A stretch of DNA of 49,904 bases from Octopus sinensis (taxonomy: Eukaryota): NCBI RefSeq assembly GCF_006345805.1, contig NW_021834299.1, positions 1 to 49,904 of the forward strand. Reading direction: 5' to 3'. Every line of letters starts with the position of its first letter. The first letter of the stretch is position 1. The notes beneath the pieces are model-generated. The model did no database searches. It worked only from the letters and a program-made list of their open reading frames with translations, and was not told where the DNA came from. The translations under genes and the position numbers were made by a program. This document shows positions 3,511 to 49,037 of the stretch, piece after piece.

Positions 3511-4449
3511 CTCTATCCATCTAGTAGATTTAATATTTTGTATGACGTTACAGTTTAAAATGACTACTTCACCAATACTTGAAGCTCTATGCTGAGTTGA
3601 TTTATCAGATGAAGTGTATTTCAGTACTAACGTTTGTTCCCCTACATACTCGGCAGCCAACTTCCGGTTGCTGTTGAACCTTCGGCTGAGTCACGCTAGA
3701 ACTTCACTTCATGCTGACGTTCACTTCCGACCAGTTAGTTTGGTACTGTTTTGTATAATAACGGTCACAATAATAGAGCGTCTACCAGCAGTCGTTCAAA
3801 CATAGGTTGCATCATGTGAACAGAACTGACGCAAAGCAATGAACTTCCACTATCATTCGACGATAACAGTCCTTTTTGGAAAATATGGCTGTATCATCAC
3901 GAAGATGACAGCTTCTAGATTGTTACCACGTCAGTGAAACTTTGCGTAGTGTAAGACTATGTCACAAGCTGCGGCGTAGCACATGTGAAGAAATTCTAAT
4001 TACGAATTAAGAACAACTGTAGCAATGGAAGCATTATCAGTCGAACATACATAGTGCATATGTTTGTTTTTTTATACACCAAATTTGCTACTGCTCGACG
4101 CCGAGTGTTAAAGAACTCCTAAATGTTACAGAGCAAGCGAGGGGCTATGCTTCAGCACACCAGCAAATAGACTTCACTCTATTTGCACGTAAGTCATAGA
4201 CCAGCGATTCACTTCGTTTCCAGATCATCCGAGTACATGGTATTTATAAGCCACAATAATGGCAAAATATTTGACAGAATACAACTCTCGGTGATTCCGA
4301 GGTGAGTTGGTTGCCTGGTCTGTGACATTCATGTACTCCTTAACATTCAAGAGTCGTTTGGGAAGCTTTACCCGGATGCTATCCCGCAGCAAATTTGGCA
4401 TATAAACAAAGCACATATACTATCTATGTGTGACCGATAATGTTTACAC

Positions 4450-5375
4450 ATGCACATATAGGAGCGTCGTGAGTACAATCGTCCTGTAGGCGCTGACTTT
4501 TGTGCTGATCTTAAGATGCTTGTTGTTCCACACACGCTGGCACAGTCTGTCAAATGTTTTCTTTGCCTTTGCGAGTCTGTTGTCAACTTCTTTGTTGATA
4601 ATCGCATCTGATGAGATGGTACGCCCAAGATAAGTGAACTGCTGTACTGACTTCAGTTCTGTTTCGGCAATGGTGATGTGGGGTGGATTGTACTCTTTCT
4701 CAGGAGTTGGTTGGTGTAGGACTTCAGTCTTTTTCAAGCTTACTTCCAGCTCGAAGGTCTGGGCGGCCTCTGCAAAACGGGATGTAATGCGCTGCAGGGC
4801 TCTTTCTGTGTGTGCAACAAATGCGGCATCATCTGCAAAGAGAAGGTCCTGAATCAGTTGCACTTGGATCTTGGTTTTTATCCTGAAGACGCCGGAGGTT
4901 GAAAAAACTGCCATCCAGACGGTACCTGATGTAGACGCCGTCTTCAGCGTTGAGGTCTACAGTGGCCTTTTTGAGTATCATGCCGAAGAGAGTTGGTGCC
5001 AGAACACGGCCCTGATTCACGTCGTTGTTGATGGGGAATGACTGATAGATCGCTATTCAGGCGGACTTGTCATCGCTGGTCTTCGTGACGCTGCATGATC
5101 ATGGTTAGGAATTTTAGGGGATAGCGGAGTCGGTTCAGGATCTGCCACAGACCTTTTCTGCTCACAGTGTCGAACTGTTTCGTCAGATCGACAAATGTTA
5201 CATTAAGTGGTTTGTTTTGCTTCCAGCACTTTTCTTGGATCTGCCTAAGAACAAAAACCATATCTGGTGTGCTCCTGTTGTCTCTGAAACCACATGGCTT
5301 TCTGGAAGATGATTTTCGGCTAGAACTTTTCCTACAGTGGAAAGCAGGGTGACCCCACTCCCCGCCGGAAGTTTG
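4450..5375 (-). mobile_element. RTE-clade (BovB-like) LINE reverse transcriptase fragment, frameshifted
   Basis: Motifs [56 protein letters not shown] and QFTYLGRTIS. Confidence 0.95.
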
Positions 5376-5570
5376 AGAAGTCTGACTTTTCTTCTTTGTT
5401 TTCGTACAGTGTAATGAGGACATAATGATGACATACTGATGACAGCACACATATGTGTTGACATATACACACACACACATATACAAATATACACATATAC
5501 ATGCATACATACATATATACATACATATATGTATATATATGTGCATGCACACGCACGCACAGATAGAAAC

Positions 5571-5661
<91 letters not shown>

Positions 5662-5671
5662 CACAGACAGA

Positions 5672-5702
<31 letters not shown>

Positions 5703-5728
5703 GTCAGATAGATAGATCGATAGATCGG

Positions 5729-5797
<69 letters not shown>

Positions 5798-6901
5798 GCT
5801 CATGTATACACGTAAATATATATACATATATATATGCACATACTAAGTAATTAAGGGTTTAGCAACGATTTGCCTCACCACACACCGAATTTAGAAATAG
5901 CAGTCAAATACATATGCACTGACACACAGACACAGAAACACACATAGATGCACACACACAGACACATATATATAGACATGTATACACACATATAGATACA
6001 TATATTTAACATACACACATATATATACGTACATGATGTGTGAGTGTGTGTATATGTATGTATGCATATATGTATGTGTGTATATATATGTATGTATGTA
6101 TGCATGCATGTATGTATGTATGTATGTATGTATGTATGTATGTATGTATGTATGTATGTATGTATGTGTGTATGTATGCATGAATGCATACATACATATA
6201 TCCTTACATATACTTATAAATGTATATATGTGTATATAAAATAAAGAAATGTGAGAGGAAATGGGATGAAGAACACCTACGCACCGATACACATACCGCA
6301 ACACTTGCACGCGCGCGATCGTGTTTGAGTGTGTGTGTGTGTGTGTGTGTGTGTAGGATTGTGTGTGAGTGTGTGTGTGTGTGAGAGTGTGTATGTGTAT
6401 GCGTGTGTGTCTGTGTGTGCGTGCGTGTGTGTGTGACTACATAATCTCGCAGAAACAAGAATGGAAAACCGGTCTCAATATGGAACGCACACAATAATGA
6501 ATCTGTGAAGCTATAAATCTTAAGGGCAGCGAAGCGAAACAGAAAGAAGGATGGAGAATGGAAGTGCTGAAGGAAGAATAAACTAGAAAAACTATTTAGA
6601 AGTTTGATTGGCATAGAAGTATGGGAATGAAACGAAAAAATGCGGTGTCGGGTGGCTGTAAAAATCTTATACATCAATCTGATTGGATTCGATGAAGCAT
6701 CTCAGAGATAAGGTGCGAAAAACTTCATGGATTTTAGTGAACGAACAGAAATCAATACATTGGTTTATTGATTGGTCACATGACTCGCTCTCTTTATCTT
6801 TATCTATTTGCTTATCTGTCTATCTACCCGTGCATCTACCCGTGCATCTAGCTATCTATTTATTTATCTAGTTATCAATCTATCTAGCTTGTTATACTTA
6901 T

Positions 6902-8506: not shown

Positions 8507-9136
8507 TACATAGACATACATACATAGAAACAAAGATATATAGACACAGACATACGTTCAAACATACATACATACATACATACATACATACATACATACA
8601 TACATACATACATACATACATACATACATACGTACATACATACATACGTACACGATCACCATAAATGCACAGGACATAATCACACTGCCACCATCACCGC
8701 TATTACCATCTCCAACACCAACACTCTCCGCCACCTACGGTCTACCGTCAACTGTTTCCACCACCAACAACAACAACAACAAAACCAATATGAACAACAA
8801 CAACAACAAAGCCAACATGAATAGCAACAACAACAATCAAACTACCAAATCGATTTTTATACAACACAAGAGATTTAAGACATGGTTCTCAACACAATTC
8901 TGTCAACACTGGACGAAAACTATTTTTTCGCCGCGATAAATATTTAATATACATTCATACATATGTGTGTGAGTGGTTGTGTGTGTGTGTTGTGTGTGTG
9001 TGTGTGTACGTGTATGTATATATATATATATTATATTAGTATATTAATATATATATATATATATATATAATATATATATATGTATGTATATATATACATA
9101 ATGGTATATATATATCTATAATATATCTTATAAAAT

Positions 9137-10850
9137 TATTAGAGACAAAACCACTATTTTGCAAAACAAACAAGGAAAGACTTAATCAATACATAAAATT
9201 TTAATAAATAGTCAAAAAAACCGCCACTACAATTGTTTCTTGTCTTGATCGACAATCTTCAGGTGGACTTCCAATCTAAAATATCAATATTTTAAAATAT
9301 AAAAATAATAATTTTAAAATAATTAAAGTATGAATGAAAAAATATAAATTATAATCCATATATAACCTATATATAATCCATATATAATCAATATATAACA
9401 ATATATAAACTAATATAAACTAAAATAAACCTATCAACAATTAAATATAAAATATAAATAATAAATATAAAATATAAAACAAACAAAAAAATAATAATAT
9501 ATAATAATAAACTATATATACACCCATACACATATACCTAATTATATATAACCATATCTAACTACATACACTAAATCACACACCTATATATATATCCCTA
9601 TACATACACATAAAACGTCTAGGCAACTATAAATAAATAAATAGCTAAATACTTCAACACAGTACTTATTCATACTCCCACACACACACACATACAACCC
9701 ACATTCACGCTCTAGAAAACGGACATCACTTAAATTATGAACGGAGAAATGGAATAATGGAATTAAAAATTATATTCACTTGGTAAAACGAACACTACTT
9801 AAAAATTATGAATGAAACAATGCAATAAAACAACAGACATCGCAAATAGACACAAATTACTACGAATTCCCTAACAAACCTACCATGATAACCCAAAACC
9901 ATAAAAACATATAATGAAAAAATCTCCCTTTACTAAACTCTATAACATACCTATATAGCATCCCCCTAACCTAAACATTCACACACAAATACACACACGT
10001 GACGTAACCACACACCCACGACATATACAAATACCCACCCACTTACACATACCTATACATACATATAAACCTCAACATATACTCCAAAACCCACTCAACC
10101 CCACACAGACAAATAAACACAAAAATATGAATGGATTCTTTTATAAAACTACCATGATAAGCTAAAACTCACAAAACATAAATGATAAAACCTCCCTTTA
10201 CTAAACACTATAACATACTTATATAGCAATCCCTTTAACCTAACATTCACACACATACACACACGTAAAACCACACCCCATAACAAATACAAACACCCAC
10301 CCCACTCACACACACCCACAAGTACATATAAGCCTCAACATATACACCAAACAAAATTACTTTACCAAGGAACTTAACATATGTATAAAAAGTATAACCG
10401 CTCTGGAAACGAACATCTTTTAAAATAATGAATGGAGAAATGGAATAAATGGAATTAAAAATAATATTCACGTGGCAAAACGAACACCACTCAAAATTAT
10501 GAATGAAACAATGTAATAAAAACAACCAACATCGAAAATAGACAAATTACCACGAATTCCCTAAAAAAACCATGATAAACCAAAACTCTTAAAAACATAT
10601 AACGATAAAATCTCCCTTGCTAAACTCTATAACAAACCTATATAGCAATCCCCCTAACCTAAACATTCACACACAATACACACACGTAAACCACAGACCC
10701 CGACTTATACACATACCTATACTAACTTATAAACCTCATATACACCAAAAACCACTCCCTCCCCACACAGACAAATTAACACATACATCCCAAAACCTAA
10801 ATAACAAACCCATATACACATTCACACACAAACACAAAGTTGTCTACTCC
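9137..10850 (-). mobile_element. PLE-like non-coding 3' region / pseudo-LTR with internal duplications, abutting (TA)n
   Basis: HHR near the left end; strong strand skew (plus strand G-poor); 9721-10120 repeated at 10411-10790; the terminal ~50 bp recurs at 44711-44765 inside (TA)n. Confidence 0.55.
9224..9266 (-). ncRNA. Minimal type I hammerhead ribozyme
   Basis: Minus strand reads ccac CTGAAGA ttgtc gatcaa gacaa GAAAC aatt GTA gtgg: complete core, 4-bp stem I, 5-bp stem II, palindromic stem III (acaattgt), GUA cleavage triplet. Confidence 0.85.
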
Positions 10851-10859
10851 TTATGCAGA

Positions 10860-11880
10860 GTTTGGCCATCTCCTGTACCTACACCTTAGAACCATCATGG
10901 CATCTGTTGTGGCTCTTCAAACCAGACAATGTTCTGAAAGACACCCACATAGATTGCACATCCGATTTGAACTACCAAGAGCAGCAGATAATTTCTGATC
11001 TTTGTGGATCTTAAAATGTCTTTTGAAGCCTCCGTTAGATTTGCCTTCAAAGGTGTGCACAGACATATAGGCAGAATAGTTGGTGGAGGTTCGTTTTCCA
11101 TGGGTTCGCAAATGAGATTTGAACCTAGCAAAAGAAAGGCATGGTCTGTCACAAACTGTGCACACAAAAGGGTCATTGTCATTCACCTTTTCGATTGTAA
11201 CATTCTTCCTTAAATCTCTTTTGAGTCTTACATGCGTTATCCTGGCCTCTTCAAACGCTTTCACTCCACTCCACACTTTTGTTCGCCATTCAGCTCGATC
11301 CGAAGCAAGGGTTTCTATGTCTTCTGGATCCATTCCAAGTGACTTCATTGTAGTCCTTATACCGTCCTTAAACCTTTTTTTTAGGTTTACACCGATAGTG
11401 TTTCCCCTCTGCAAGCTCACTATAAAACAGCTGTTTCTGCATGCGTTAATCCGCCATTCGAACAATATGGCCACACCATCTCATTTGGTTCATCAAAATC
11501 ATAGCTGTAATTGAGGTGACACCTGCAGGTGCAAAGACATCCGTGTTTGGAGTAAAAGAACTCCAGTTAATGTTTAAAATGCATTGAAGGCATTTTGGTG
11601 GAATTGTTCTAACAATTTAAAATGCTTTTCATAACAAATCCATGTTTCACAAGAATACAATAGGGATGGTAAGACAAATGATTTGTAAAGAATCAGCTTT
11701 GTATTGTTATTTATAAGTCGCTGGCACCAAACGCGTGACTCCAAGCCACTAAATGCTTTTGCTGCCCTTTGAATTCGCAGATGTATTTCTGTATCTAGAT
11801 TTCCATCATTTTGTACAGAGCTTCCAAGGTAGATGAACGAATCGACAACCTCAAGTGACTTTACCCTTAACAAAAATTTT
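10860..11880 (-). mobile_element. RTE-clade LINE 3' fragment with C2H2-like C-terminus
   Basis: SFIYLGSSV, LPSLLYSCETW, KKRFKDGIRTTMK, LASDRAEWR and CTVCDRPCLSFARFKSHLRTH. Confidence 0.9.
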
Positions 11881-11888
11881 ATATATAT

Positions 11889-12220
11889 AGGCGCAGGCGT
11901 GGCTGTGGAGTAAGTAGCTTGCTTCCCAAACACATGGTTCCAGGTTCATTCCTATGGCGTGGCAGCTTGGGCAAGTGTCTTCTACTATAGCCCCGGGCCA
12001 ACCAAAGCCTTTTGAGTGGATTCGGAGACTGAAAGAAGCCTGTCGTATATGTGTGTATGTGTGTGTGTTTGTGTCTGGTTTTATCCTCCTACCATCACTT
12101 GACAACCGATGTTGGTATGCTTACGTCACCGTAACATAGCAGTTGGTCAAAAGAGACCTATAGACTAAGTGCTCCAGCATGGCCGCAAACAAATGACTGA
12201 AACTAATAAAAGAATAAAGA
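11889..12220 (+). mobile_element. SINE family B
   Basis: ggcgcaggcgtggctgtggagtaag head, ggttc B box, internal (TG)n and tail atgactgaaac; matches 30284-30740. Confidence 0.85.
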
Positions 12221-12520
12221 CATATATATATATATCAACATATGTGTATACATATATATATATTATATATATATATATATATTATATATATATATATATT
12301 TTAGTCAATTTAGGGTAGCAAAAAAATTCAATAGAAATTTATCGCAACCAGCGGCCTGGTGAAAAAGAGAAAATAGTCATCGACTAAATATATAAATATA
12401 ACGATTTAGGAGTGACCCCAACAGGTCACTCGTCCACCAGAAAGAGCAGCCATAACTCACACCGCCAAGTATTATTAATTCAGAAATTAGGTGAAAATTT
12501 AAAAACTTTACCCTAATTCA

Positions 12521-12621
12521 TCTTTTAGACGTTGCAACGTTTCTGTGTCATTAATGATTAAATTAGCTTAATTAAATTAAATTAAGCCAATCTACCATAG
12601 GTTACACTTCATCAGTAAAGA
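12521..12621 (-). ncRNA. Type I hammerhead ribozyme, unit 1
   Basis: Reverse complement of the motif described for 14916-15016. Confidence 0.8.
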
Positions 12622-12991
12622 CCTGGGAGAGACAAATATACACTAGGCGTCTGTATCGAAGCCTACGGGATATCTGACTTAAAATTTTCAAGACTGACGT
12701 ATTCTCGCGCCAACTTATCAACAGTAAATATAAACTGCCGCTTCAATCTCAGAATATTCAGAAAATTATCAATTAGTCAATTTAGGGTAGCAAAAAAATT
12801 CAATAGAATTTATCGCAACCAGCGGCCTGGTGAAAAAGAGAAATATTCATCGACTAAATATATAAATATAACGATTTAGGAGTGACCCCAACAGGTCACT
12901 CGTCCACCAGAAAGAGCAGCCATAACTCACACCGCCAAGTATTATTAATTCAGAAATTAGGTGAAAATTTAAAAACATTTACCCTAATTCA

Positions 12992-13091
12992 TCTTTTAGA
13001 CGTTGCAACGTTTCTGTGTCATTAATGATTAAATTAGCTTAATTAAATTAATTAAGCCAATCTACCATAGGTTACACTTCATCAGTAAAGA
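12992..13091 (-). ncRNA. Type I hammerhead ribozyme, unit 2
   Basis: Same motif as unit 1. Confidence 0.8.
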
Positions 13092-13465
13092 CCTGGGAGA
13101 GACAAATATACACGAGGCGTCTGTATCGAAGCCTACGGGATATCTGACTTAAAATTTTCAAGACTGACGTATTCGCGCCAACTTATCAACAGTAAATATA
13201 AACTGCCGCTTCAATCTCAGAATTATTCAGAAAATTATCAATTAGTCAATTTAGGGTAGCAAAAAAATTCAATAGAAATTTATCGCAAAACCAACGGCCT
13301 GGTGAAAAAGAGAAAATAGTCATCGACTAAATATATAAATATAACGATTAGGAGTGACCCCAACAGGTCACTCGTCCACCAGAGAGCAGCCATAACTCAC
13401 ACGCCAAGTATTATTAATTCAGAAATTAGGTGAAAATGAAATTTAAAAACATTTACCCTAATTCA

Positions 13466-13568
13466 TCTTTTAGACGTTGCAACGTTTCTCTGTGTCATTA
13501 ATGATTAAATTAGCTTAATTAAATTAAATTAAGCCAATCTACCAGTTACACTTCATCAGCAGTAAAGA
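13466..13568 (-). ncRNA. Type I hammerhead ribozyme, unit 3 (3-nt duplication between stem I and core)
   Basis: Same motif, but reads tctttaCTGctgatga and has other small indels. Confidence 0.65.
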
Positions 13569-13937
13569 CCTGGGAGAGACAAATATACACGAGGCGTCTG
13601 TATCGAAGCCTACGGGATATCTGACTTAAAATTTTCAAGACTGACGTATTCGCGCCAAACTTATCAACAGTAATATAAACTGCGCTTCAATCTCAGAATT
13701 ATTCAGAAAATTATCAATTAGTCAATTTAGGGTAGCAAAAAATTCAATAGAAATTTATCGCAACCAGCGGCCTGGTGAAAAAGAGAAAATAGTCATCGAC
13801 TAAATATATAAATATAACGATTTAGGAGTGACCCCAACAGGTCACTCGTCCACCAGAAAGAGCAGCCATAACTCACACCGCCAAGTATTATTAATTCAGA
13901 AATTAGGTGAAAATTTAAAAACATTTACCCTAATTCA

Positions 13938-14038
13938 TCTTTTAGACGTTGCAACGTTTCTGTGTCATTAATGATTAAATTAGCTTAATTAAATTAAATT
14001 AAGCCAATCTACCATAGGTTACACTTCATCAGTAAAGA
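13938..14038 (-). ncRNA. Type I hammerhead ribozyme, unit 4
   Basis: Same motif as unit 1. Confidence 0.8.
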
Positions 14039-14408
14039 CCTGGGAGAGACAAATATACACGAGGCGTCTGTATCGAAGCCTACGGGATATCTGACTTAAA
14101 ATTTTCAAGACTGACGTATTCGCGCCAAACTTATCAACAGTAAATATAAACTGCCGCTTCAATCTCAGAATTATTCAGAAAATTATCAATTAGTCAATTT
14201 AGGGTAGCAAAAAATTCAATAGAAATTTATCGCAACCAGCGGCCTGGTGAAAAAGAGAAAATAGTCATCGACAAATATATAAATATAACGATTTAGGAGT
14301 GACCCCAACAGGTCACTCGTCCACCAGAAAGAGCAGCCATAACTCACACCGCCAAGTATTATTAATTCAGAAATTAGGTGAAAATTTAAAAACATTTACC
14401 CTAATTCA

Positions 14409-14508
14409 TCTTTTAGACGTTGCAACGTTTCTGTGTCATTAATGATTAAATTAGCTTAATTAAATTAAATTAAGCCAATCTACCATAGTTACACTTCATC
14501 AGTAAAGA
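14409..14508 (-). ncRNA. Type I hammerhead ribozyme, unit 5
   Basis: Same motif as unit 1. Confidence 0.8.
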
Positions 14509-14915
14509 CCTGGGAGAGACAAATATACACGAGGCGTCTGTATCGAAGCCTACGGGATATCTGACTTAAAATTTTCAAGACTGACGTATTCGCGCCAAAC
14601 TTATCAACAGTAAATATAAACTGCCGCTTCAATCTCAGAATTATTCAGAAAATTATCAATTAGTCAATTAGGGTAGCAAAAAAATTCAATAGAAAAAAAT
14701 TTTCACCAGGCCGCTGGTTGCGATAAATTTCTATTGAATTTTTTTGCTACCCTAAATTGACTAATTGATAATTTTCTGAATAATTCTGAGATTGAAGCGG
14801 CAGTTTTATATTACTGTTGATAAGTTTGGCGCGAATACGTCAGTCTTGAAAATTTTAAGTCAGATATCCCGTAGGCTTCGATACAGACGCCTCGTGTATA
14901 TTTGTCTCTCCCAGG

Positions 14916-15016
14916 TCTTTACTGATGAAGTGTAACCTATGGTAGATTGGCTTAATTTAATTTAATTAAGCTAATTTAATCATTAATGACACAGAAACGT
15001 TGCAACGTCTAAAAGA
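14916..15016 (+). ncRNA. Type I hammerhead ribozyme in the inverted copy
   Basis: tcttta CTGATGA a gtgt...(long AU-rich hairpin ttggcttaatt/aattaagctaa)...acac a GAA acgttgcaacgt C taaaaga. Core boxes intact, stem III is a perfect 12-nt palindrome, predicted GUC cleavage after 15009. Confidence 0.82.
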
Positions 15017-15137
15017 TGAATTAGGGTAAATGTTTTTAAATTTTCACCTAATTTCTGAATTAATAATACTTGGCGGTGTGAGTTTATGGCTGCTCTTTCT
15101 GGTGGACGAGTGACCTGTTGGGGTCACTCCTAAATCG

Positions 15138-15195
<58 letters not shown>

Positions 15196-15199
15196 CGCA

Positions 15200-15237
<38 letters not shown>

Positions 15238-15527
15238 TCACCGTGATCACCGTGACCGACCAGGCTATCATGTGTTGCTACACATCGCTGGTCACAATGC
15301 GCTTCGCATTGTTTTAGCCTTTAAATGACGCCACCCCGCTGGCCAACAGAAGAAAGAGTGAGAGAAAGTTGTGGCGAAAGAGTACAGCAGGGATCGCCAC
15401 CATCCCCTGCCGGAGCGTCGTGGAGCTTTAGGTGTTTTCGCTCAATAACACTCACAACGCCCGGTCTGGGAATCGAAACCGCGATCCTACGACCGCTGCC
15501 CTAACCACTGGGCTATTGCGCCTCCAC
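15238..15527 (-). mobile_element. SINE family C, near full length
   Basis: tRNA-like head (agcccagtggttagggcag; ggtttcgattccc) and 3' tail gtcacggtgatcacggtga followed by (TA)n. Confidence 0.9.
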
Positions 15528-19985: not shown

Positions 19986-20158
19986 TAAATCACATATATG
20001 TTTTCCAGACATCCTAGAGAGTTTGATTATCTTCATGAAGTATTAGGAGTGAGTTCTATGAAATGTACAGTCAAATTATAAGCAGACTTAAAATGCTTTC
20101 TAATGATGCACAGATAATCAAACTCTCTAGGATGTCTGGAAAACATATGTGATTTAGC
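19984..20158. repeat. ~48-bp near-perfect inverted repeat with a 79-bp spacer
   Basis: 19984-20032 is the reverse complement of 20112-20158 apart from one TA insertion. Confidence 0.9.
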
Positions 20159-20441
20159 TGATGAACACTGGACATTTGTATTTGCTGCGATATTTGCAGC
20201 TTCAAATAAAATTGCTCTTAGTATGAAACAATTGTACTGAACTACTAATCCATTCTTGTTGCTTTTTTCTTGGTTATAATCACCCCACATTATTTTATGG
20301 TTAATACCATAAAGAATTCAGGTGCATCTAAGTTAAGTACCATATTCATTTGAATTCACTTGAATCTTAATGCTTTTTGCTGAATTTTATATATATGTAT
20401 ATATATATATATATATACACACGCATAATATATATATATAT

Positions 20442-31685: not shown

Positions 31686-33249
31686 CAGTTGCGGACACAA
31701 GTAGGTATAAGTTTTTATCAAAGTTGTTTTATATTCTATAATTTTCACAGACAATACATACAATATTAATTGTTATTGTCTGAGATTTTGGTGTAATTTG
31801 AGAGGATAATACAAAAGTTATGGATGATTTAGGGATTTACTGCAAAACCCATGGCGGCCAAAATGATCAGAACGGTACTTTTACTCCGTGTTTTAGTATA
31901 TTTAACCGGTGAACTCTAATGATTTGAATTTGTTTACCTGACGGTTCGTTTACTAAACATTAGTAAGAGTATCTGCAGTGTACTTTGTTAATATAATGCC
32001 ACTTACTCCGTTACCAATTCGTCAGCAGATTATTAAGCTTCGAAAGAAGGATAATTTAAGTATTGGGTCTATTGCAAAGATTGTTAACAAGTCAAAAAGT
32101 GTTGTTCACGGTATTCTTAAGGTCTTCATGATTGTGGTTCATGTGAAGCAAGACAGTCTACAGGTAGGCCAAGAAAAACGACTAAGAGAGAAGATCGTGC
32201 TATGGTAAAGTTGGTTAAAAAGGACAGATTTAAAACTGCTGCTGCTGTTTCTCGGGAAATGAGCATTGTACTGAAGAAAACTTTATTTCGAAAAACTGTC
32301 TCATCATTTAGTTGAACATTACCTACAAGCAAGAGCACCTGCAGTGAAGCCACTGATCAGCTCCAAGAATAAAAAGTGTCGTCTTACCTTTGCAACCGAA
32401 AATGGGTTGTACTCTCAAAAAAAATGGCAAACGGTGCATTTCCGTGATGAATCTAAGTTTATGTTATATGGCTCAGATGGGAAAGTAGGTGAAAAATTGT
32501 CGCCTAAATGCCTTAAGACTAGTGTTAAATTCGGTGGAGGAAGTGTCATGGTTTGGGGGATGATATCTGGAGATGGTGTGAGCCCTTTGGTGAGATTACA
32601 TGGAAAGGTAAATGCAGGAGTTTATAAACAACTTGTAAAAGATCCTGTCTTGCCTGTGCTGAGAAATTCAACTAAGCGATCACCCATATTCAGGCAGGAC
32701 AATGCCCCATGTCACAAGGCTAAGGTGGTCATGAACTTTCTCAAGGCTGAAAAGATTATTGTTATGGATTGGCCTGCTCAAATCCCAGATCTTAATCCTA
32801 TTGAAAATGTGTGGAATGTTCTAGGAGAACGTTCGAAAGCCAGAAATCCTAAAACAACCGAGCAATTATGGAATGCCCTTCAGGAGGAATGGAATAAGAT
32901 CACCCAGCAAGAAATTGAAAGTTTAATTTCCTCATGCAGTCGAAGATGTCAAAATTTGATTTAAGCTAAAGGGCTTCACACTAAATATTAAATAATTCCA
33001 GTATTCTCTGTCATTTTTGATTATTTTGTTATTTTTTTCAACCGTTCTGATCATTTTGGCCGCCATGGGTTTTGCTAAATCATCCATAACTTTTGTATTA
33101 TCCTCTCAAATTACACCAAAATCTCAGACAATAATAATTAATATCGTATTTATTGTCTGTGAAAATTATAGAATATAAAACAACTTTGATAAAAACTTAT
33201 ACCTACTTTTCTGACGAAAAAAATGCCGTTCTGAACATTTTGGCCGCAA

Positions 33250-33766: not shown

Positions 33767-33770
<4 letters not shown>

Positions 33771-35897
33771 AACTTTACCCGCTGGATTTTTCTCAGAAAA
33801 ATATACCTATCCCTGCACGGAAACAATATCTCAAAGGTCTTATAGAGAAAACGGAAGAGTTTATTAGAAGACTGAGATGGAAAGCCTTCTTCTTTGATAA
33901 TAAACAGAAAATAGAAGGAAACAAATATGGATTTAAATCTCCCAGAAACCCGCCACCGATTCCGGAATTAGAAGCCTTCGAGAAAGACCTTTTCGAGCTT
34001 ATTAGGAAAATTAAATTCCGCAAATATACCAACCAATTGCAGACAAATATGAGAGAAAAAATTAAGGAGATTAACGACTCGAATAAGATCTTCGTTAATT
34101 CTGACAAGACAAGGAACTTATATGCACTTGATAAGGACGTTTATAAACGCCTGATTTCGAATAGTGTCACGGACACATACAAAAAAGACAACACGAATAT
34201 ATACAAAGAGGTGAACTTAGAAGCAAGAGGAATAGCTAACGATCTTAAGATTAGCGATAGGATTGAATACCTTTCACCACGACCAGCTTTTATTACTCTG
34301 AAAGACCATAAAGCCAATTTTAGTAGAAACCCCAAATGTAGATTGATAAATCCGGCTAAAACTGAGATAGGAATTATTAGCAAAAAATTTTGGACCGTAT
34401 TTAGTTAAGTTAGATAGTGAAGTAGACTTGAGAATTTGGAAGAATAGTAAGTCAGTTATAGAGTGGTTTAAAGGTATTAGCTATAAGAATAATTGTAGTT
34501 TCACACAATTCGACATTATTGACTTTTACCCGTCAATATCTAGGACGTTGCCTAAGGGCATTGGACTTCGCCAAGCAGTATGTCAACATCGATAGCTCGG
34601 AAATTGATATTATTATGCATGCGAGGAAATCGCTTCTTTTTTTCGAGGATTCCACCTGGATTAAGAAGACTGAGGATTCTCTTTTCGATGTACCGATGGG
34701 GGCATACGACGGGGCTGAGTTATGTATGCTCATAGGAGCCTTTATTCTCCATAATCTAAAAATAGAATTCCCATTTATAGATGCAGGTTTATATAGGGAT
34801 GACGGCCTTATAGCCACGCATAATCTAAACGGCCATGAATCAGATAGACTTAGGAAGGACATCATAGCTTTCTTTCAAAGGATGGGCTTACGGGTTACGA
34901 TAGATGCTAACCTGAATAGTGTAGATTTTTTAGACGTAAATTTTAATGTAGGATCGGATAGATTTAAACCTTTCCGTAAGCCCAATGAAAAGCTATCGTA
35001 TATTAGCAAAGATTCGAACCATCCACCAGTTATCCTTAGGAACTTAGTCAGCAATGTAGGTAGAAGAATATCTTCAATTTCTTCGGACGAGGCAGCATTC
35101 CATAATGCTGCACCTTATTACGATAGCGCATTAGAGAATAGTGGATTCTCTGAGAAGATCCAGTTCAACCAGCTTAATGCTGATAATAATGCTGCACGAA
35201 GAACTAGAACCAGGAAAGTTTTGTGGTTCAACCCGGCTTTCAATTTGGCCGTAAAGACTAATATAGGTAAGGAATTTTTGAGATTAGTCTCTAAGCATTT
35301 TAAGCAGGGTCATAAATTCTATAGGATATTTAACAGAAGAACCCTGAAGGTTAGCTATTCTTGTTGCAGAAATTTCGCCTCTTACATTAGCCAACATAAT
35401 AGGAAGCTAATTGAGATTAGACATGGTGCCGAGACCATTAAGAAATGTAATTTCAAAAACGAAAGCTCCTGTCCGTTAGAAGGGAAATGTCTGGTGAAAG
35501 GAGTAGTTTATAGAGCCAAGGTGCAAGTGGAAGGCTCATCGGAATACAAGACATACACAGGGGCTTCAGAAAATCATTAAAAACAAGATTTTATTCTCAT
35601 AAAAATTCATTTAAATACCCAGAGAATAGGAAGAAAACCAGCCTAGCAAAATATGTCTGGGAACTAAAAGAAAAGGAAGCCCCACCTTTCAACGTGACAT
35701 GGAGCATTCTGGACAGGGCGGCACCATACAGGCATGGAGCTTACAAAAATAATTTCAAGTGCAAGCTTTGTTTATTAGAAAAAATGTACATCTTATTCAA
35801 AGACAATAATTCTTTGAATCAAAGAAGCGAGCTAATGAACTTATGTAGGCACGCGGCTAAATTTAAAATGTCGAATATAAATATACCATATGGATAG
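33767..35897 (+). mobile_element. Penelope-like retroelement ORF (RT + C-terminal GIY-YIG), Naiad-type, split by four frameshifts
   Basis: SQKNIPIP...LIEKTEEFIRRLRWKAFFF, SDKTRNLY, FITLKDHK...CRLINPAK, FDIIDFYPSIS, FDVPMGAYDGAELC, GLYRDDGL, DFLDVNF, WFNPAF, GVVYRAKV...YTGASE and CKLCLLEK...LNQRSELMNLCRH. Starts directly after (TA)n. Confidence 0.93.
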
Positions 35898-36812
35898 AGT
35901 ATATATTTTGTATTTTTGATTTTGATTTTGACTCTTGAACGATGAGCGCTACGATGGATCTTGTTTCCAAGGAATGCGGATCTTAATCCGTATAGCAAAG
36001 TCTTATGTTTCTACATATATATTAGGAAAAACCTCCAACTTTTGTTTTCATGTTATTGTATTATATAGGATTACCTTGATTATTTATATTACCTTAATTA
36101 TTTATAAATGACCCAAAATAGGATGTTATTTTATTTTATATGTCTTTCGTATATATTTTTATTAATGCACCCATTTTTCTTTTTAAAAAAAGCAATGTTT
36201 TTTTTTAAAAAAAAAGCAATGTTGTCAAAATTAGAATGTTGATATAAGTATGTGCATAGCAAAGCATATGTATTTGTAAGCATGCGTATCTGTGTATGTG
36301 TAAGTGAAAGTATGTTTGTGCTTAAGCACACATATACACGACTGTATCCATTCAAACTTATGTATGTATACTGGTCTCCATATATGCCATAATGCCGTTA
36401 CACTGCTTGTATACATAATTTTTTCTTATTTCGTTTTTTTCCCCACACCTCCTTCGTTCCTTTTCTCTCTCTCCCTTTCTTTCGTTCCTCCCTTACTCAG
36501 TATATGAGAATCGCTACATAGATCTTTTAACTTGCGTGCGAGATGGTTTTGCGTGAATATATGTACACATGCTTTTATGTGTATATTTAGATTTATATTC
36601 ATACGTCTGTATATGTATGGCGTTTGCACGCATAATTTTGTGTATGTTGATATATATATGTAGATTTTAATATAATATGTATTGTTGCAGTGTAATATTT
36701 ATAACAGGTTTAATTTCTATGCATTAATTTGCACTTTCTTCATTAACGTCAATATGTATTTTATTCAATGTAAGGTTTTTTCCTCGGATTTTATAATTTA
36801 TAAGTTTTTATA

Positions 36813-36849
<37 letters not shown>

Positions 36850-36981
36850 CCTTTTTGTTTATCGCTCGAAGATTGACCGTTTTTTCTAAAGGGCCAATCA
36901 AACAAGTCCATTTCTTTTTAAAGGTGTAGCGTTTGTAAGAGTATAGATTGAATTGATATATCAGTTCCATTCTAGCAAAAA

Positions 36982-37019
36982 CTGTCTGATGAACGGCAAC
37001 GAGAAACTCAGAGTAACAG
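36982..37019 (+). ncRNA. Minimal type I hammerhead ribozyme in a ~210-bp (TA)n-flanked insert (36849-37060)
   Basis: ctgt CTGATGA a cg gcaa cg a GAAAC tc a ga GTA acag: intact core, GNRA-capped 2-bp stem II, pseudo-palindromic stem III actc-a-gagt. Confidence 0.8.
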
Positions 37020-37055
37020 ATTTGGTTGAATTTTCTGCTGCTAAAATAAAAAAAG

Positions 37056-47859: not shown

Positions 47860-49037
47860 TCAGGTCATCCCATAAGTTCTGTCCGAATTTTCAATAAAGA
47901 TAACAAGTGATCAAATGTTATATGTAATTGAAATTTAATCATCAATGTACTTTCCCTGATTATCTATGACTTACTTCCAGCTATTTACAAGCTTTTTAAT
48001 CCCATCAATGTAAAACTCTTTTGGTTTCAAAGCGAAGAACTCTGAAATGTTAGTTACGACCTCCTCCTGATTTGCGAAAAATTATGTCCCCCAGATGATT
48101 CCGTAAACTACGAAACAAATGTCCTGATGATACGTCATTCCTTTTCGATTCACTAAAGCGGGCTTTTTTCTTCAAAACTTGGTTCAAATGCTCTAATTGT
48201 TGACAGTAGACTTGAGCATTGATTGTTGTATTAGGTGGTAACATTTCAAAATGAATTACTCCTTTGAAATCCCACCAGATAGAGAGAAGAACCTTTTTCC
48301 TATGAAGTTCCTTTCTCGGTTGTGGTTGAGCTTTTTCCTTTTTACCAAGCCACTGTTTACGACGTTTAACATTTCAATAAAAGATCCATTTTTCGTCACC
48401 AGTCACAAGTCTATCAATGATGGGTGAAATGAGTTCGCGAGAATGGAGAGAAGAGCAGATGGCAACTCGGGATTTGCGGTTGCTTTCGAACAATTCATGA
48501 GGCACCTATTTTCCAAGTCTAGCAACCTTTCCAAAATGTTAAAGATGACGATGACCAGTTGTATGGTTTAAACTAAGCTTTATTGCCAATTCTTCAACTG
48601 ATAATGCAGGATTTTCTTTAAGTAATGCCTCAAGGAGCTTATCATCAAACTCAACTGGACGTCCTGTTCGATCTTCACCTTCAAGGCTGAAATCTTCACT
48701 TCTAAATTTTGCACACCATCTTCTGCAAGTTCTTTCATTCAAGCATTCTTTCCCATAAACTGAGTGTATGTTTCGAGTCGTTTCGGCTGCAGAGTTTCCT
48801 TTTTTGTACTCATAAAGCATTATGTGCCTTAAATGCTCTTTGGGTATATCCATGTTAGAAAGGGTTTTAATCAAAGAAATTTTAATTCAATTATTCTGTA
48901 AAATAATATTTAATTAGTTTAAATATACACAAATGCATAAAAATAATTTTTAATTCCATTAAACATTCTAAAATACTATTAAATTTCATTCAATTTTAAA
49001 AGAGGCAAAATCGGACAGACCTTATGGGATGACCTCA
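47860..49037 (-). mobile_element. Mariner-family transposon, internally deleted
   Basis: ~30-bp TIRs TA|tcaggtcatcccataagttctgtccga and tcggacagaccttatgggatgacctca|TG. Confidence 0.93.
47935..48853 (-). pseudogene. Mariner transposase pseudogene
   Basis: HLRHIMLYEYKKGNSAAET, DRTGRP, (W>*)VPHEL, VTGDEKWIFY and HLFRSLRNHL; the HDNARPH-YSPDLAPSD segment is deleted. Confidence 0.92.

Follow-up and report, generated by a model that had tools for sequence, protein, structure and literature searches.

How a tandem repeat that encodes no protein comes to be copied into a genome, and from which form of RNA, is the question raised by an array of ~472-bp units in a 49,904-nucleotide stretch of Octopus sinensis DNA (assembly GCF_006345805.1, contig NW_021834299.1, positions 1 to 49,904; hereafter the window), which is a small unplaced contig. 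Each unit carries a predicted hammerhead ribozyme, as in the metazoan retrozymes without long terminal repeats (non-LTR retrozymes) described in PMC7229834 (Cervera and de la Pena 2020) and in the preprint 10.64898/2026.07.22.740005 (Li et al. 2026); these and the other papers are cited here for the passages that bear on such elements. The enzyme that moves animal retrozymes is treated there as open, Penelope-like elements (PLEs) being called a 'strong candidate' (PMC7229834), and the link between the two has so far rested on co-occurrence and phylogeny (10.64898/2026.07.22.740005). The origin of the tandem and inverted structures of PLEs is also stated as open (PMC8557442, PMC11167929). The window's array represents a single insertion of a family that is young, encodes no protein and has a predicted type I hammerhead in each of its 472-base units. 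Mobilisation of this family by PLE-type enzymes is very probable; use of a circular monomer as template, as read from sequence patterns, is likely, and so is the combination of the two.

The five near-identical head-to-tail units of the original prediction were verified by Tandem Repeats Finder (TRF; period 470, 5.1 copies) and by alignment, which place 5.07 copies of ~472 bp at 12301-14695. Units start at 12301, 12773, 13242, 13718 and 14190, the sixth being only 36 nt long, and they share 95-100% identity; most of the differences are 1-base indels that look like long-read error, with unit 3 the noisiest. The GC content of the unit is 34.7%. As had been claimed, the units hold no open reading frame (ORF), and a protein-coding unit is ruled out by a longest stop-free frame of 55 amino acids (aa). 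The end assigned at 14694 did not survive, as the insertion continues beyond 14695 with four A's and a reverse-complement arm of 0.94 unit (14700-~15142), followed by the right (TA)n tract. The whole insertion thus reads (TA)n, 5.07 units, inverted 0.94 unit, (TA)n, so that the description of an array set between (TA)n tracts is correct for both flanks but places the right tract too early, before the inverted sixth copy. Since both flanks are (TA)n, a target-site duplication, which in metazoan non-LTR retrozymes exceeds 4 bp where one is present, cannot be read. Arrays are bounded by (TA)n and LTR architecture is absent, no dedicated search for a primer-binding site or polypurine tract having been made. 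Positions within the unit are given below as phases, with phase 1 at 12301, and the two types of outer end are called A and B. The features of the insertion are as follows.

12222-12300, no strand: left (TA)n target tract (TRF 12222-12299, period 2; sequence)
12301-14695, minus strand: long arm of 5.07 head-to-tail units; RNA sense minus, RNA 3' end at 12301, which is end type A, phase 1
12301-12396, minus strand: ~96-nt 'tail', found at the A end but lacking from the B end (from the end phases)
12520-12622, minus strand: predicted type I hammerhead of unit 1, predicted cleavage after 12528
12991-13092, minus strand: predicted type I hammerhead of unit 2, predicted cleavage after 12999
13465-13569, minus strand: hammerhead of unit 3, disturbed by small insertions (from alignment; not matched by the descriptor)
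13937-14039, minus strand: predicted type I hammerhead of unit 4, A.A at the base of helix II, predicted cleavage after 13945
14408-14509, minus strand: predicted type I hammerhead of unit 5, predicted cleavage after 14416
14696-14699, no strand: arm junction, phase 36 to phase 64 via four A's (sequence)
14700-15142, plus strand: short inverted arm of 0.94 unit; RNA sense plus, RNA 3' end at ~15142, which is end type B, phase ~97
14915-15017, plus strand: predicted type I hammerhead of the inverted arm, predicted cleavage after 15009
15143-15238, no strand: right (TA)n target tract (TRF 15139-15238, period 2)

The family to which this insertion belongs is widespread in the genome, where a 25-nt word from the ribozyme core has 571 exact matches (control 0). 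Searching with the unit returned 919 candidates, the 39 best-scoring of which contain 232 matches; removing three that repeat the flanks of locus L039 (L and X numbers are our working labels for loci and sequencing runs) leaves 36 distinct loci, the window included. Their units are 93-100% identical and their arrays have up to ~10 units per arm and reach 17 units. For the young family at large, the core matches on the largest chromosome average ~2.5 per locus (56 in 22 clusters, counted by eye). Two opposed arms with the RNA 3' ends facing outward are present at 28 of the 36 loci and a single arm at the other eight. Apart from irregular ends, outer ends fall only at phase 1-3 (type A) or ~96-98 (type B), every one of the 36 loci has at least one A or B end abutting (TA)n, and 25 of the 28 two-armed loci combine one A with one B, none being A+A or B+B. 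Independent pattern searches of the genome located 56 distinct strict ends of type A and 79 strict ends of type B, and all 34 face-to-face pairs within 12 kb are A+B (span 91-6754 bp, nominal p 2e-11), representing about 30 independent loci, as one locus is present in four contigs and a single A end has two B partners. The inner ends behave differently from the outer ones: 60 of them, read by hand, are spread across the unit (uniformity not rejected, p 0.12), with two within 5 nt of the cleavage site where 1.4 are expected, and the arms are joined there by a few bases of overlap or filler. The start phases expected to vary between loci are therefore fixed at two values on the outside and variable only on the inside, and it is this pattern that ties the family to PLE enzymes. 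The locus seen four times (L039, L040, L049, L050) has identical flanks on four small contigs with two different unit numbers, indicating duplicated haplotigs in the assembly and uncertain array lengths.

Older sister families, 72-83% identical to the unit and with a period of ~478-489 bp (L069-L098), were reached through a variant helix III word with 194 exact matches (control 0); they have the same two ends and the same inversions, yet mostly 1-2 units. In about half of their copies the CUGAUGA core is replaced by CCGAUGA. Miniature insertions, ~90-100 bp in length and consisting of nothing but one short arm of each end type, A and B, were also recorded by their coordinates (C4:65189453-65189544, C2:34318419-34318518, C7:9034201-9034302), and can be read as abortive two-strand priming events.

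The ends described here closely resemble those of endonuclease-bearing (EN+) PLEs (Penelope/Poseidon, Neptune, Hydra, Naiad), which likewise combine an inverted 5'-truncated copy with a tail confined to one end and a bias for (TA)n, as well as a hammerhead upstream of two start sites and extension of both target strands (PMC8557442, PMC11167929). The purified PLE of the anole cuts and extends both target strands, is predicted to act as a dimer, and has two internal start sites, the stretch between them being the tail (PMC11167929); by analogy, the ~96-nt tail of the octopus family would be the interval between two reverse-transcription start sites. The family differs from these elements in that it has no ORF for a reverse transcriptase (RT) and GIY-YIG endonuclease, in a tail of ~96 nt compared to 30-40, in having whole-unit multimers in both arms, and in that no autonomous partner with recognisable 3' homology was found. 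A PLE ORF contiguous with the unit occurs at 0 of the 36 family loci and 0 of 30 sister-family loci, so that at none of these loci does the unit serve as the pseudo-LTR of an attached PLE, which supports the retrozyme interpretation; PLE pieces do lie near L056 and L058, but each was inserted separately, behind a (TA)n tract of its own.

The template is addressed by the distribution of variants among 198 unit pieces, which were aligned to one reference with substitutions scored away from indels. At sites covered by at least three units of a locus, 57 variants are fixed across the locus, 5 are intermediate and 92 are single, whereas in 300 shuffles of the locus labels the mean number of fixed variants was 2.0 (maximum 9) and intermediate ones never numbered fewer than 59. 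At all 52 non-majority sites compared in 24 loci the opposed arms carry the same base, units are 0.25% apart within loci and 1.06% apart between them, and the 36 loci hold 23 haplotypes, with a private fixed variant in 13 of them; in the window, all six copies carry one base found otherwise only in L039. The array-wide fixation and the agreement of the arms indicate that each array, both arms included, descends from one monomer, and for fixation to recur in this way, almost every step must include a narrowing to one unit and a renewed expansion. A circle formed by ligation would supply both, and the clonal pattern is what rolling-circle reverse transcription of a circular RNA predicts. The guess of rolling-circle copying made in the original prediction therefore receives independent support. 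The cleavage site bears no scar, with at most one indel per position at phases 223-230 in ~188 units.

In each unit the minus strand reads helix I, CUGAUGA, helix II, GAAA, helix III, GUC and helix I', which is the type I topology. The window motif is CUGAUGA...GAAAC-GUUGCAAC-GUC, and the predicted cut at phase 228/227 is remote from the array ends, in agreement with what had been noted. Helix III is a 12-nt palindrome, ACGUUGCAACGU, which could fold alone or pair between adjacent units; helix II is 67 nt long and AU-rich, and helix I has 4 bp plus an extension (unit 4 motif). A minus-strand hammerhead had been claimed for every unit, and while the motif is present in all, it is intact in only five of the six window copies, that of unit 3 having insertions beside CUGAUGA and GAAA which may be a read error. 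None of 5000 dinucleotide shuffles of the unit matches the hammerhead descriptor. The model search proposed as a check returned no Rfam hammerhead in the window at the gathering score, nor in one unit (701 bases) at E<=10, where snoRNA-type chance matches alone appeared; the 67-nt length of helix II probably explains why the models miss the motif.

The fold was further assessed in an alignment of 22 copies, one from the window and 21 from sister families (72-83% identical families), in which pairing holds for 94.3% of cells, both partners have changed in six pairs and none of 500 shuffles scores as high, the structure having been supplied by hand and kinship alone being able to exceed such shuffles without any structure. 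Sliding the helix partners lowers pairing to 22-46%, and RNAalifold recovers the upper part of helix II and helix III from the same alignment while missing helix I and the helix II base. Folded as a circle, the unit has a z score of -4.8 (0 of 40 shuffles). Covariation in the sister families supports the predicted type I fold, and self-cleavage of the transcript would be plausible.

Taken together, these data suggest a route in which read-through transcripts of an array would self-cleave once per unit and the 472-nt monomer would be ligated into a circle, as inferred from known retrozymes. A reverse transcriptase-endonuclease, presumably borrowed from a Penelope-like element, would cut both strands of a (TA)n target and prime one cDNA on each, at phase 1 and phase ~97, as the end signature suggests. 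To account for the clonality, both cDNAs would then be extended around one monomer, completing differing numbers of turns and ending at no fixed phase. Head-to-head joining of their ends, with overlap or filler of a few bases, would produce the structure of (TA)n, arm, inverted arm and (TA)n that is seen, or a simple tandem array where an arm is missing or of minimal length. This full scheme, a bidirectional rolling-circle retrotransposition in which a dimeric PLE-type enzyme starts on one 472-nt RNA circle made by the ribozyme, at two sites 96 nt apart, and makes two opposed multimers, is regarded as somewhat more likely than not.

Several points weigh against PLE-type copying of a circle. 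The loci are the best-scoring ones, such that long, young arrays are over-represented, and their singletons and indels are partly read error; three of the 28 two-armed loci have an irregular end, 11 of the 36 loci share one haplotype, and the five variants at intermediate frequency inside arrays are scattered over both arms. No significant 3'-end similarity of the unit to the five sampled PLE families was found. In the window's family the base of helix II is A.A, where all 21 sister copies have G-C (14) or A-U (7), and the active fold lies 7.7 kcal/mol above the optimum for the circular monomer, for which reasons the ribozyme may be weak. The anole PLE used an uncleaved RNA template and its ribozyme was dispensable in vitro (PMC11167929), and eight of nine predicted Xenopus retrozyme dimers failed to cleave in vitro (10.64898/2026.07.22.740005). 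On the other hand, the A.A base is also found in a Hydra-like PLE family of this genome. The axolotl hammerhead HHR_Amex2, which has a U.U mismatch at the same place, still cleaves, weakly as a monomer and well as a dimer (PMC7229834), and a palindromic helix III with action as a dimer has been described for PLE and animal hammerheads (PMC4209133).

Part of this would suit a template that was an uncleaved linear multimer transcribed from an existing array, the element being the same non-autonomous PLE-type one and the ribozyme a weak passenger; the uniformity of arrays would then come from a few uniform source arrays, or from short insertions later expanded by unequal exchange. The internal starts of PLE reverse transcription on unprocessed RNA in vitro without ribozyme cleavage, the A.A base, the haplotype common to 11 loci and the five intermediate variants all speak for it, and random inner ends fit it equally well. 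Copying of a linear multimer, however, could only shorten arrays and would pass on new mutations as 1-in-n variants, which is difficult to reconcile with 23 haplotypes among 36 loci fixed array-wide, in arrays of up to 17 units and in both arms. Expansion of the DNA with age is also opposed by the older sister families, which mostly have 1-2 units compared to ~2.5 cores in the young family, unless the older arrays have collapsed, as they may have. The linear multimer is therefore regarded as unlikely, but as a rival to be taken seriously. A cleaved linear monomer would give the same one-monomer bottleneck as a circle if the enzyme jumped repeatedly from its 5' to its 3' end and made tandem cDNA without ligation, and template jumping is known for non-LTR enzymes; yet jumps would be expected to leave an indel or substitution scar at phases 223-230, of which the ~188 units show none, arm ends are not piled up at the cleavage site, and switching between different monomers would mix haplotypes inside arrays. 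This makes jumping on a linear monomer improbable.

Templates aside, the tandem organisation could be that of an ordinary satellite or of an orphaned pseudo-LTR array, amplified locally as DNA and bearing a ribozyme-like relic, and one passage of 10.64898/2026.07.22.740005 prefers the view that PLE termini are amplified locally. Against this stand the dispersed loci with unrelated flanks, the fixed A and B ends, the inverted arms, the ~90-bp insertions with the same ends, the lack of an attached ORF and a structure kept by compensatory change; the end statistics largely refute this explanation, which is considered very improbable. An artefact of long-read assembly, in the form of fold-back or duplicated reads, had been named as what would overturn the original prediction, and the small unplaced contig, 1-base indels typical of read error and another locus on four contigs are what one would expect of it. 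Fold-back would not, however, yield unequal fixed end phases with unrelated flanks at dozens of loci, and among the short-read contigs assembled from other runs, some span the unit junction (X1, X15) and some contain short A and B arms of a sister family in opposed orientation (X6), so that an artefact is scarcely credible and the exact number of units per array alone remains uncertain. A 520-nt contig in run X1, which is RNA by guess, wraps round the unit, as a tandem would also cause it to do; this look-up covered the assembled contigs of 4 of 22 listed runs and is blind to RNA ends, strand, level and circularity.

Possible helpers were sought among the PLEs of this genome. It contains at least five PLE families in which near-identical copies are numerous and open frames measure 727-900 aa, of which at least three are what we take to be Neptune-like and at least two are Hydra-like (L099-L128, L159-L170, L199-L204), and 8,800-13,800 first-look candidates were returned per query; the genome seems unusually PLE-rich, with several recent bursts. 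A third Hydra-like family is old and decayed. Pfam identifies RVT_1 in a Neptune-like ORF and nothing in the Hydra-like pieces of the window, the Hydra label being based on motifs listed in PMC8557442. In the four autonomous families whose ends were read the layout is the same as in the 472-bp family, with tails of ~37, ~45, 70 and ~150 nt, the last taken from different loci rather than from paired arms.

The helper candidates sampled were five families out of thousands of candidates, with Naiad, Poseidon and Nematis outside the sample. Searches by blastn and with a DNA profile (the unit and 15 sister pieces) found nothing significant in 92 PLE loci, nor in 20 longer PLE loci with the PLE region of the window, nor in 7 Hydra-2 pieces; matches at L099 and L178 are unrelated neighbouring copies of the 472-bp repeat itself. 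Pairwise alignments compared to shuffles gave borderline results that lacked specificity. The best match to a candidate helper is 20 of 24 positions between the most conserved terminal block of the unit and one Hydra-clade tail (17 of 1000 shuffles), the same comparison with two other copies giving 189 and 399 of 1000. An AT-rich match to a Neptune copy reached 4 of 1000 and looks like chance, and the Hydra-clade match is no stronger. The Hydra-clade family with this match also has a long helix II and a palindromic helix III, and these two helices together with the terminal motif would favour the Hydra clade as the helper, as a lead only. The window itself contains a frameshifted, 5'-truncated PLE on the plus strand at 33767-37050, with the RWK, DKT, CxxC and CxH motifs of the Hydra clade. 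Its family is young (150 scored copies, 93-99% aa identity, open frames of 727 aa) and is found in (TA)n with inverted arms, a 70-nt tail and a hammerhead with A.A at the base of helix II.

In comparison with the metazoan non-LTR retrozymes, the octopus family is similar in its non-coding, low-GC tandem units of a few hundred bases with one type I hammerhead each, in its range from dimers to multimers and in its coexistence with autonomous PLEs. The unit of 472 bp is slightly above the 150-450 bp of PMC7229834 and inside the 51-972 bp of 10.64898/2026.07.22.740005. Cleavage and circular RNA have been shown for the published elements, and for the present family they are predicted; its helix II is 67 nt compared to ~4 bp, and its helix III is a 4-bp stem within the 12-nt palindrome. 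Neither of the two papers, in the passages cited, samples cephalopods or mentions the inverted arm, the two fixed start sites, targeting of (TA)n or array-wide clonality. The preprint equates retrozymes with PLEs from their co-occurrence and from pseudo-LTR phylogeny in vertebrates, three insects and a coral (10.64898/2026.07.22.740005). By those features that can be tested on its sequence, the octopus family is a non-LTR retrozyme and equally a non-autonomous PLE. A further parallel is Chlamys MRC1 of Chlamydomonas, which is also a protein-free PLE derivative in multicopy head-to-tail arrays; non-autonomous Chlamys elements, however, generally lack canonical hammerheads and have a 3' end like that of their autonomous partner (PMC8557442), while the family here has a hammerhead.

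A circular template was proposed in 2014 (Cervera and de la Pena), when hammerhead cleavage, ligation of the circle and reverse transcription of more than one unit length were suggested to give head-to-tail PLE tandems (PMC4209133). The model was tentative, and the octopus family agrees with its prediction at the level of populations, which is a bottleneck of one monomer per insertion. A literature search, with supplements and Repbase/Dfam outside its scope, returned no description of the family, of inverted or tailed ends on an animal retrozyme, or of array clonality; the class is already described, and it is the genomic evidence on its mechanism that was not found in print. The family places a PLE footprint on a retrozyme in which each insertion, both arms included, passes through one monomer, and since it is young, is fully resolved at tens of loci or more and shares the genome with several intact PLE families, both the enzyme of retrozymes and the origin of PLE tandem and inverted structures become testable. 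The test of array clonality can be transferred to other retrozyme or PLE data sets. If the interpretation is correct, circular templates in PLE-type insertion would have their first direct population evidence, and a 472-nt currently active substrate would become available together with a short list of intact candidate helpers, making a ten-year-old model directly testable.

Other features of the unit and of the window may be mentioned. In the RNA sense, minus-strand positions 13771-13931 (phases ~214 to ~55 of each unit) could be an intron, with G|GUAAAU just past the cleavage site and a pyrimidine tract and YAG ~160 nt further; these signals are also kept in 75%-identical sister families, and the B end falls within the possible intron. 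PLEs are known to retain introns, and no spliced joint was seen in four contig sets. At ~19990-20390 the window contains a second, unrelated non-coding element with a hammerhead, which has CUGAUGA at 20158, a long helix II, a palindromic helix III and an end in (TA)n. Its relatives include an inverted pair at L056:1700-2600, and further hammerhead types are present at L042:1647 and 2524, so the genome seems to host several families of hammerhead-bearing elements. Lastly, the ORF list contains transposon-like remnants at 4444-5850, 10917-11945, 32275-32964 and 48050-48886, which from their motifs are presumably of RTE-type long interspersed element and Tc1/mariner origin.

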